From: Picochlorum sp. SENEW3
Taxonomy: Eukaryota
Length of the DNA: 64,000 nt
Assembly (NCBI GenBank): GCA_034226945.1
Contig: CP120461.1
Coordinates: 806,001-870,000, forward strand
Direction of reading: 5' to 3'
Shown: piece after piece, positions 36,472 through 44,334 of the stretch
Numbering within the stretch: the first letter of the stretch is position 1
Layout of the letters: each line of letters starts with the position of its first letter
Notes under the pieces: model-generated
What the model saw: the letters and a program-made list of their open reading frames with translations, nothing else
Told to the model about the DNA's origin: nothing
The model's database searches: none
Translations under genes and position numbers: made by a program

Positions 36472-36491
36472 TCAAGACAATGGTACATATA
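36472..36491 (-). other. THIC: Orphaned native THIC C-terminal codons (YVPLS-stop) on the far side of the transposon
   Basis: Removing the element and one ATA copy gives GGT GAA ATA TAT GTA CCA TTG TCT TGA = G-E-I-Y-V-P-L-S-*, a typical THIC GGEIY ending. Confidence 0.9.
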
Positions 36492-36534
36492 CATCTGGGA
36501 AATCTGAAAATAAGAAATGGACGTCCGATGTAAT
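36492..36534 (+). repeat. Left 43-bp terminal inverted repeat
   Basis: 43/43 match to the reverse complement of 42488-42530. Confidence 0.97.
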
Positions 36535-36639
36535 ACACAATTCTTCTGTCGACACACTAATTTAAGATATAAGAATTTGACGTTGATGTCCAAATGTACT
36601 ACTATTTTTATACACGGATACTGGCGTTCCTGTGCACTG

Positions 36640-36694
36640 TTTGGACGTTATTTGGACGCTATATAGACGCTATTTGGACGCTATATGGACGCCT
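36640..36694 (+). repeat. Subterminal tandem array, 5 x 11 bp (consensus TWTGGACGCTA)
   Basis: TTTGGACGTTA TTTGGACGCTA TATAGACGCTA TTTGGACGCTA TATGGACGCCT. The core TGGACG also occurs in the TIR. Confidence 0.9.
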
Positions 36695-41800: not shown

Positions 41801-42157
41801 AGGCTCAGTGATACGATGGGATCCTTTGTGACTGTGAAAGGCGATGGACACCAGCCATGGTATGCTGAGATCCTCTGCTTTGTGAGAATCACGCCTCCAT
41901 CTACCAGTGGGAGACAGGATGCAGAGGTTGCATTCGTCAGGTGGTTTACAGAGGTCAAGAAAGCTACTTTACATCCTGTCCTTGGCCTGCCATATCTCAA
42001 AGTGGAGAAGACTGTGAGACAGAGTTCTGAAGGTAACAACCAAACAGAAGTCTTCACCGATCTATGCAGAGCTGTAGATATACTCGAGCCAATTTACATG
42101 CAAAAAGACCCCAGCAACAACAGGAAATGGTTCATACACAACAGGTATGTCCGCTGA
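38898..42157 (+). CDS. Plavaka-like DDE transposase; about 6 exons, two apparent frameshifts
   Basis: N-terminal CxxC..H..C finger (CQYCGKWF...HYKGC); VYGEVAWGDW; LLPIAFYSDKT...LYPVNL...IGHIP; FYAADLLE; PDTLHTLHSG; LNTLK...HERTH; C-terminal WYAEILCFV...AFVRWF. Introns at ~39621-39686, 40352-40424, 40823-40889, ~41270-41344, ~41555-41627. Confidence 0.8.
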
Positions 42158-42348
42158 ACTTGGGGCCAACTTGCTCCATACCAGCGCAGTGGCTCGCCCC
42201 AGGGGTGCAAGTCACCTTGTACAATATGTAGAAAAGTAATCTGTAAAATAATATTTATAGTCCAAATATACTCCACTGTCCAAATCGGCTACATTTGGTG
42301 TACCTGGATTCGTGGACGCCTATCCCTACATGGACATTGCCGTTTGTG

Positions 42349-44334
42349 TCACCTGTCCGACGAATGGAAAAAACATGCCTCTATCTCGCTTTGGCCCCTT
42401 CGGACGGTGGATGGACAGATGTCATACAGGGTACTACGATAGACGTCCATGTCCACGTACACGAAATGTGTGTCCAAAGGACACTGGATTACATCGGACG
42501 TCCATTTCTTATTTTCAGATTTCCCAGATGATATTTCACCTCCAGAAGACTTGAACTTTTCACTCATCTCTCGCATGCCTCTCTCCTTTTCCTCCAGTAT
42601 CTCCTCGGCATTGTCGAGAGAGCGAATTTGATGGGTGATTTCCATGGAACAAAAGTTACTTCCACACATGGAACAAAAGTGTGCAGTCTTGGCACCATCT
42701 TGTGGCAGGGTTTCATCATGCATGGATCGAGCGGGCAATGGATCCAATGACAGGTTGAATTGATCGTTCCAACGGAATTCAAATCGTGCCCAGGATAGCT
42801 CATCGTCCCATTGTTGCGCCATTGGGTGCCTTTTTGAAAGGTCGGCTGCATGAGCAGCAATCTTGTAGGCAATCATGCCCTGTTTGACATCTTCCTTGTT
42901 GGGCAGGCCAAGATGCTCTTTTGGTGTCACATAGCAGAGTAGACTGGTCCCAAGAGCACCAATTGTGGCTGCCCCGATCGCAGACGTGATGTGATCGTAC
43001 CCAGGTGCGATATCTGTGGTGAGTGGACCAAGTGTGTAAAAGGGTGCCTCATGGCACCATTCCATCTGCTTGGCCATGTTCTCAGGAATCTTGTGAAGAG
43101 GAACATGTCCTGGTCCCTCGTTCATGACCTGAACATGCCTTTCCCAGGCTCTCTTGGTCAATTCGCCTTGTGTTAGCAGCTCTGAAAACTGAGCCTCGTC
43201 ATTCGCATCATAGATACACCCTGGTCGGAGGCCATCACCAATGGACAAGGCAATGTCATACTCGGCGCAAATGTCCAAAATTTCGTCCCAATGGGTGTAT
43301 GCAAAATTTTCTTCGTGGTTCAAAAGCATCGCTTTGGCGTGAATTGATCCGCCTCTTGAAACAATCCCTGTGAGTCGCTCCTTTGTCAATGGCACATATC
43401 TGAGCAGAACCGCTGCATGAATGGTAAAGTAATCAACCCCTTGTTCTGCCTGTTCGAGCAGTGTCTCTTTGAACAGCTCCCATGTTATGTTTTCTACTTT
43501 GCCTCCAGCCTTTTCCAAGGTCTGATAGATTGGGACAGTACCCACAGGAACAGGACAATTCCTCATAATGTATTCCCTCGTTTCGTGGATGTCAGCACCT
43601 GTTGAAAGATCCATAATGGTGTCTGCATGCCACATCGTGGCCCATTTCATCTTCTCAACCTCCTCTGAAATATCACTTTTCACAGCAGAATTACCAATAT
43701 TTGCATTCACTTTGGTGAGGAAGCGCCGTCCAATGACACAGGGTTCCAGCTCAAGGTGCCTCTTGTTTGCAGGAATGATTGCCCTGCCCCGAGCCACTTC
43801 CTCGCGAACCAGCTCTACGTCCACCTGCTCCCTCATCGCAACAAAGAGCATCTCTTCCGTGATGATCCCTTGTTTGGCATAGTACTTTTGCGTCATCACC
43901 TTGTCACCCCGCTTCTCTCGCCTGTCAACCCACTGGTGGCGGATTTTGGGGATTCCAGCCTGGACATCATTGTCATCCAGCGCAGGAGGACCCCCAGTAA
44001 AGTACGTCTCAAACACCCCAGATCCACCCGTTAAAGAAACGCGTCTATACGGGACTCGTAGAATGTCCCCGGTGCCCTCGTGCACCCTCTCGTTGTACCC
44101 AACCTCACTAGAGGGGAAGCATTCCTCAACTGTTGGAAATTGCTCCCTCTCCATTGCAACTGATGCTGTACGGAGTACATGATGTCTGGTTCTCCCTGAT
44201 AACGTCACCGGCAGTGTGGAAGGCCCACGCCGTGTCGAGAAGGCTCGTGCCCACCTGTTGGACACAGAGGAGAGCATCCTGCAGCATGCATGTACATTGT
44301 GCTCTTGCATTGTCATTGCACGACTCGAAGACAT
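42349..44334 (-). CDS. THIC: Phosphomethylpyrimidine synthase THIC; native C-terminus replaced by 60 transposon-derived residues
   Basis: [63 protein letters not shown] and the radical-SAM motif [13 protein letters not shown]. Host-derived sequence ends at 42531 (...GGEI). Confidence 0.96.
42488..42530 (-). repeat. Right 43-bp terminal inverted repeat
   Basis: ATTACATCGGACGTCCATTTCTTATTTTCAGATTTCCCAGATG, the reverse complement of the left TIR. Confidence 0.97.

Follow-up and report, generated by a model that had tools for sequence, protein, structure and literature searches.

What happens to a vitamin gene when a transposon settles a few codons before its stop, and does such an allele still work? 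This question is raised by a 64,000-nt stretch of Picochlorum sp. SENEW3 (GenBank assembly GCA_034226945.1, contig CP120461.1, positions 806,001 to 870,000 of the forward strand; hereafter the window, with a G+C content of ~46%), where a 6,039-bp element (36492–42530) interrupts the Tyr602 codon of THIC, a gene of thiamine (vitamin B1) synthesis, after the first base of that codon. Here, we show that the insertion is a true polymorphism, with this strain carrying the element and at least two other strains retaining an empty site, and we weigh what it may mean for the enzyme, for selection on the gene and for the vitamin requirement of the strain.

THIC lies on the minus strand as one open frame without introns, with its start ATG at 44334–44332. 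The coding part before the insertion (42534–44334, codons 1–601), delimited from the open reading frame (ORF), Pfam PF01964 and alignments, matches PF01964 ThiC_Rad_SAM over profile positions 1–419 of 420 (E 6.8e-183) and the AtThiC chains 4S25–4S29 with 884 bits. The element is bounded by a target-site duplication, ATA, whose left copy (36489–36491) is apparent from the sequence and from empty-site contigs and whose right copy (42531–42533, TAT on the THIC strand) is apparent from the sequence and from empty-site joints in which three letters can be assigned to either flank; THIC codon 602 begins with the last base of this right copy. From here the minus-strand frame stays open from 44334 to 42349 and encodes 661 aa, namely 601 THIC residues followed by 60 element-coded ones (SSGKSENKK...HSSDR*). 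The chimeric product thus reads ...KSSGGEI, then Ser in place of Tyr602 and 59 more residues from the element (read-through tail, 42349–42533, minus strand), up to a new stop at 42349–42351 within the element's right end. The displaced native end (36472–36488, minus strand) holds the two remaining bases of the Tyr codon, Val-Pro-Leu-Ser and the TGA at 36472–36474, and the insertion has set these last five codons, the stop and the native 3′ flank 6 kb apart from the gene. When the element is excised in silico together with one ATA, the frame again ends in ...GGEIYVPLS*. The transposase ORFs of the element run on the plus strand (from 38898 to at least 40920, perhaps to 42157) and are convergent with THIC.

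The native end predicted by excision is found in the closest relatives. A 606-aa THIC protein (P0001), 97–98% identical and retrieved by protein search, ends in GGEIYVPLS, and its 90% cluster comprises 11 members, which include the 661-aa product of the window itself as well as proteins from Picochlorum sp. BPE23 and from P. renovo. A native end of the form Y-V/I-P-L/V is present in nine of the nine other members that reach the C-terminus, the tenth (P0124) being truncated. A search of sequencing runs listed 24, none recorded as RNA, of which 20, out of 10 studies, hold part of the stretch; four of them (X1, X2, X14 and X15, the last first guessed to be RNA and then judged probably DNA) were aligned to 35000–44500 as Logan contigs, which drop rare or minor variants.

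X1 matches the strain of the window, with 0 differences across 1,520 + 1,998 flank bases, and its two flank contigs, 39.5 kb and 48 kb long at a depth of 62, both extend unbranched and with 0 differences into the terminal repeats of the element, by 28 nt on either side. No X1 contig joins 36488 to 42531, as an empty site would, a search in which a minor empty allele could have been dropped from the contigs. By contrast, X2, a gut metagenome run from a different study, holds a 1,843-bp contig that covers 35277–36488 and then 42531–43161 (1,212 + 631 nt); its joint skips 6,042 bp, and the three letters that are ambiguous between the two sides are the duplication. X14, which carries a different organism code, has the same 36488/42531 joint with 6,042 bp skipped, and in both runs the empty site is free of a footprint. 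The word share of X2 with the stretch is 0.93, as flanks and element are both present yet not adjacent, and word share alone cannot reveal an empty site. The empty-site strain in X2 is near-identical to that of the window and occurs there at a depth of ~28, and X3, X5 and X6, from the same study, contain the same words. A metagenome scan with the 606-aa relative returned 80 loci, the best of them 73% identical, and among these there was no close relative and no additional empty or occupied site.

Because X2 and X14 carry empty-site contigs, the relatives keep their native ends and the X1 flank contigs enter the repeats, the insertion is real, recent and private to this strain among the relatives compared. 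Its recency is further indicated by the perfect repeats and by 36505–38742, which shows 0 differences to a multi-copy contig of the same strain. These results bear out what the original prediction, made from the letters alone, had stated about the sequence: a transposon with terminal repeats and a target duplication in the end of THIC, an empty site GGEIYVPLS* that proves identical to the end of P0001 and to the joints of X2 and X14, read-through into 60 foreign residues, an intact CSMCGSNFC motif, and a gene severed from its own 3′ end and facing the 3′ end of the transposase gene. All of its sequence-level statements were confirmed as correct, as was its view that the insertion is recent and not common to close relatives.

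The residue at which the element landed is strongly conserved. Tyr602 is invariant in an alignment of 42 THIC proteins from green algae, red algae and plants (42/42), and 123 of 130 THIC proteins carry a terminal x-[ILV]-Y (116 found with the strict pattern, 7 on inspection by eye); the seven that lack it comprise the window allele, a truncated entry, three proteins whose ends are apparently unrelated to THIC and two that end in GAFV(H/Y). The motif can be aligned as far as Caulobacter ThiC. In the window allele, G-x-E-[ILV]-Y is broken to GGEIS, the Tyr codon being split by the insertion, which is a lesion of a true THIC member and leaves its membership unaffected; the [4Fe-4S] loop CX2CX4C is kept (C554, C557 and C562 within CSMCGSNFC). 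According to crystallographic work on AtThiC, the C-terminal cluster domain of ThiC is a tethered module that docks in the active site of the neighbouring protomer and then leaves (PMC4389238). Sixty extra residues on a docking module are not obviously innocent.

Two substitutions in the remaining coding part set the strain apart as well. Codon 150 (43885–43887) is AAG (Lys) in the window and X1 and ATG (Met) in X2, X14 and X15 (M150K), and codon 534 (42733–42735) is CCC (Pro) in the window and X1 and TCC (Ser) in the same three runs (S534P). Neither residue recurs in the 129 other THIC proteins, where Met occupies position 150 in 120 proteins, Gln in 8, Ile in 1 and Lys in 0, and Thr occupies position 534 in 107, Ser in 20, Arg in 2 and Pro in 0. 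Between the window and the major X2 strain, M150K and S534P are the two differences in the 1,670 THIC bases of the listed pieces and both are non-synonymous, whereas both differences in the neighbouring phosphatase gene are synonymous third-position changes. With 77.6% non-synonymous sites, the probability that two of two changes are non-synonymous is 0.60 at an omega of 1 and 0.02 at an omega of 0.05. This pattern, which rests on two changes, hints that selection on THIC has relaxed in the lineage. Separately, N81 (44094–44092) and M167 (43836–43834) occur in none of the 10 other cluster proteins, which have K81 and A or V at 167; both are apparently common to the X2 strain, whose contig over 43228–44269 has one difference only, and both positions are variable across the family.

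Judged by its sequence, the inserted element is a Plavaka-type cut-and-paste DNA transposon. Its terminal inverted repeats (36492–36537 and 42485–42530), located by repeat search, are 46 nt long and 98% complementary, and they share their outer 43 nt exactly (2 matches at 0 mismatches, where 100 shuffles give an expectation of 0.00). Inside the left end are subterminal 11-bp tandem repeats of the TTTGGACG type (36637–36691, repeat family D1), and a subterminal TGGACG-type motif recurs, inverted, near the right end at 42260, 42278, 42444, 42472 and 42499. The ORF at 39692–40375 (plus strand) matches the Pfam family PF18759, Plavaka transposase (E 6e-10, 39.3 bits, cut-off 26.3). The transposase gene (38898–42157, plus strand) comprises exon 1 at 38898–40351, a 73-nt GT..AG intron at 40352–40424 (GTATGT..CAG) and exon 2 from 40425; its Plavaka-type homology extends to ~40850, and relatives align by tblastn colinearly over 38913–40848, changing frame around 39717 and again around 40704 and leaving a gap where the 73-nt intron lies. 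Further downstream, the plus-strand ORFs 40883–41584 and 41618–42157, connected by a second GTATGT..CAG intron at ~41555–41626, may form the C-terminal part of the transposase; as a lead only, the 3′ ORF has an Atlas match to fungal hypothetical proteins (score 0.96), with DUF6830 on 29% of one cluster. Both element introns are ~72 nt long and of the GTATGT...CAG form, in a host gene, THIC, that is intronless.

The transposase family is a very small one: 17 relatives at E <= 0.001 were found among 1.84 billion representatives, the best of them 47–49% identical and the next relative of the core 46–49% identical, and PF18759 was above the cut-off in five of eight relatives scanned, just below it in one and without a match in two. 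PF18759 is mostly fungal. We take the Plavaka type to belong to the KDZ/CACTA-Mirage-Chapaev group, related to CACTA/En-Spm, Mirage and Chapaev, in which target duplications are 2–4 bp and typically 3 bp long. With this group the element shares the transposase domain, terminal inverted repeats, a 3-bp duplication at two copies, subterminal repeats and more than one gene; it departs from the CACTA/En-Spm branch in its termini, which read CATCTGGG, unlike CACTA or CACTG, and on these grounds a CACTA element proper was rejected. The second element gene (37556–38673, minus strand) consists of two overlapping ORFs of no known family, with only two matches in a search of 5.8 billion proteins, one of them a 386-aa hypothetical protein that is 99% identical; it has a weak AT-hook-like stretch, whose Pfam AT_hook match is below threshold. 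The other ORFs of the element gave only sub-threshold noise against Pfam at E <= 5.

There is no second copy of the element within the window, and several lines point to further copies elsewhere. In X1 the depth over the element is ~177 against 62 over the flanks (~2.9x), a variant form with 12 nt in place of 114 nt at 39113–39228 has an additional depth of 54 and is also found in X14, and loose contig ends show other flanks, including one further copy with GTA outside both ends, that is, a second 3-bp duplication. Internally deleted forms join 39165 to 41148, skipping 1,982 bp, in X14, and 39301 to 41757, skipping 2,455 bp, in X2; together with the replaced form, they probably represent non-autonomous derivatives. 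Relative to the window, the contigs of all four runs have one extra A at 39717 and one base fewer at 40704, and three of the runs also differ at the GC/AG dinucleotide at 40127–40128. The two indels coincide with the frame breaks of the transposase in the window, and an annotated 557-aa model (P0150) with 100% identity to the core avoids the first break and terminates at the stop that the second creates. Two accounts fit the copy in the window: a frameshifted passenger, still open to mobilisation by other copies, or small assembly errors within a repeat. Overall, the data describe a small, young and apparently active Plavaka-type family, whose mobility we infer from its polymorphic sites and near-identical copies.

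In this strain, then, an apparently active, multi-copy cut-and-paste transposon landed recently within codon 602 (Tyr) of THIC, and the ancestral empty site persists in at least two others. The resulting allele retains the catalytic core and the cluster loop and exchanges Tyr and the four following residues for 60 element-coded ones, and its mRNA has to form its 3′ end inside the element. Selection on THIC may have been relaxed, for instance through long upkeep in vitamin-containing medium, and transposase supplied by other copies could allow excision and so restore a working THIC end, as at METE in Chlamydomonas. Because the loss of the Tyr, M150K and S534P coincide despite the strong conservation of the gene and the very short divergence, we consider a weakened or dead allele, with THIC under relaxed selection, to have about an even chance of being correct, which makes it, slightly, the likeliest single reading. 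A stronger version, which we hold to be rather doubtful, is that the strain is a nascent thiamine (hydroxymethylpyrimidine, HMP) auxotroph, very shortly diverged from prototrophic sisters; here, the mobile transposon would either have disabled THIC or have been tolerated since vitamin-fed culture had made the gene dispensable, and THIC would already be gathering otherwise forbidden substitutions such as M150K and S534P.

Several observations weigh against a weakened THIC, and most of them favour instead a near-neutral insertion, in which an enzyme with a floppy tail works, the mRNA ends cryptically in the element, the strain is a prototroph and M150K and S534P are harmless. The 601 native codons remain open, and all 16 of the 16 ligand and contact residues listed in PMC4389238 are kept at a constant offset of -16 (the metal ligands, S-adenosylmethionine and aminoimidazole ribotide contacts and cluster cysteines of AtThiC, including H410, H474, E473, R370 and M556). 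The tail is disordered in AtThiC crystals, where, as that source describes it, the last 55 residues are invisible even at very high resolution (PMC4389238), and likewise in an AlphaFold2 model of the native 606 aa built from the 42-sequence alignment (mean predicted local distance difference test score, pLDDT, 66.7), in which pLDDT is <50 at 518–561 and 598–606, so that the model is uninformative on Tyr602 and S534. Tyr602 itself is a residue without a known structural role. Since the length after the Tyr varies among relatives, from 1 to 19 residues in the 130 THIC proteins and ~220–230 in two, a C-terminal extension as such may be tolerated. The displaced flank also appears to carry no riboswitch: across the 64 kb, a scan for the thiamine pyrophosphate (TPP) riboswitch gave nothing that reached the gathering score, and within 35400–45000 there was nothing at E <= 10 either, although a divergent one could be missed, and, with no TPP riboswitch detectable there, no known regulator was lost with the flank. 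In the comparison with X2, the listed pieces (42531–43161 and 43228–44269, with one difference each) leave uncovered 44270–44334 and 43162–43227, the latter including the minor-variant sites 43192 and 43227, both synonymous; the differences counted are those listed, hence at least two, and two substitutions are too few for a selection test. Moreover, a second THIC copy or a salvage route may exist elsewhere in the genome, the scope here being the window, and X1 is possibly the source of the window assembly, in which case its support for the junctions is not independent. Besides, selection is most likely to spare insertions that fall at the very 3′ end of a gene. Set against a harmless insertion are the constancy of the Tyr in the 42-protein alignment and its presence in 123 of 130 proteins, the absence of K150 and P534 from all 129 relatives, and the contrast between non-synonymous differences in THIC and synonymous ones in the neighbouring gene. 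On balance, we give the near-neutral insertion a chance somewhat short of even.

Two further explanations concern the genome rather than the enzyme. In a diploid that carried the insertion on one homologue only, the intact allele of the other would supply THIC and there would be no phenotype; at least one Picochlorum strain is described in PMC11092101 as at least diploid with low heterozygosity, and Logan contigs could have lost the rarer allele. However, the long X1 flank contigs cross the junctions unbroken, the 36488–42531 joint that is readily found in X2 and X14 does not appear among the X1 contigs, and the 661-aa product is recorded on two contigs, which makes this explanation improbable. 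The original prediction had offered a haplotype-specific allele as one option, and this part of its interpretation is not supported by the unbranched X1 contigs, whereas a recent, strain-private and potentially revertible insertion is supported. It had further suggested that the allele may be hypomorphic, may have arisen in culture and may yield read-through antisense RNA that silences the element. Least probable is that a copy of the repeat was misplaced into THIC during assembly: the element is multi-copy, and the two 1-base indels and one dinucleotide that separate the window copy from the contigs of the runs suggest that the repeat was imperfectly assembled or polished, yet the 3-bp duplication is clean, the X2 and X14 joints coincide exactly with the repeat ends plus one copy of the duplication, and both junction sequences are present in X1 contigs.

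The native 3′ flank of THIC (36189–36471, minus strand), the region covered in the riboswitch scan, also serves as upstream sequence for the adjacent gene, which encodes a PGP-phosphatase-like HAD hydrolase (35490–36188, minus strand, ATG at 36186–36188). The left end of the element now lies 300 nt upstream of this hydrolase gene, where THIC transcription formerly terminated, and expression of the hydrolase could be affected by the insertion as well. A TGTAA occurs 40 nt inside the element on the THIC strand and none occurs in the native 3′ flank; downstream of 24 long ORFs of the window, TGTAA was found only 7 times in the 100 nt that follow the ORF end, and no conclusion on poly(A) signals is drawn. 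Plant THIC and Chlamydomonas THIC carry a TPP riboswitch, from which Picochlorum THIC differs in having flanks without a detectable one. The idea that the insertion uncoupled THIC from a TPP riboswitch in its 3′ untranslated region was rejected, there being no riboswitch match. The sole Rfam match at the gathering score in the window is a C/D-box small nucleolar RNA, snoU36a, at 55508–55595 (minus strand; 61.8 bits, gathering score 45, E 1.1e-10).

What we describe is a transposon allele of a known gene, from a known transposase family; newly noted are the invariance of the lost Tyr and the substitutions M150K and S534P. In those portions of the Picochlorum literature on thiamine or transposable elements that were accessible, we found no account of this insertion. 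The precedent invoked by the original prediction is real: in Chlamydomonas, a type II transposon in METE led to dependence on vitamin B12, its excision reverted the phenotype and a 9-bp footprint made the dependence permanent, as related in PMC9545926. The two cases, that of C. reinhardtii METE (the S-type and metE7 lines; Helliwell et al. 2015, as described in PMC9545926) and that of Picochlorum THIC, are alike in that a cut-and-paste transposon sits in a gene for vitamin independence and is potentially excisable. They differ in that phenotype, reversion and stable footprint were demonstrated for METE under experimental evolution, whereas the THIC case is known from sequence alone, and in that THIC concerns B1 rather than B12 and is hit in its last codons, with the catalytic core whole.

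Auxenochlorella and Prototheca belong to the Trebouxiophyceae. Picochlorum is placed in the same green-algal class (PMC6141220), and both of the former genera need thiamine, THIC being the only missing pathway step in the Auxenochlorella genome examined and Arabidopsis THIC restoring thiamine prototrophy there (PMC12636532). The loss of THIC in these algae marks it as a gene where auxotrophy arises; the difference is that in them the gene is absent and the requirement absolute, whereas in Picochlorum THIC is present, open and perhaps functional. Within Picochlorum, published accounts describe P. tauri as having THIC, being kept for years on vitamin-free medium and needing no added vitamins (PMC12458973), P. 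costavermella as cultured in L1 medium with vitamins (PMC6141220), and the at least diploid, low-heterozygosity genome mentioned above as containing 0.35% DNA transposons (PMC11092101).

Should the allele prove fully functional, the insertion would be an ordinary insertion polymorphism. An apparently active DNA transposon in a genus whose genomes are very poor in transposons could serve for tagging. With Picochlorum strains under development for outdoor biomass, a hidden requirement for thiamine or HMP would matter for medium design, and a THIC-deficient strain could provide a vitamin-based selectable marker of the kind used in Auxenochlorella. Vitamin auxotrophy has arisen many times in algae and its first steps are almost never seen, the sole worked example being the laboratory-evolved B12 case. 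An allele, natural or culture-derived, of a gene whose loss is by itself enough for B1 dependence in related algae, and that stands beside sister strains with the exact empty site would make isogenic-like comparison, selection of revertants and complementation straightforward. If THIC is indeed impaired in this strain, the insertion would be a natural, reversible B1 counterpart of METE and B12, and a living model of the step that Auxenochlorella and Prototheca have taken.

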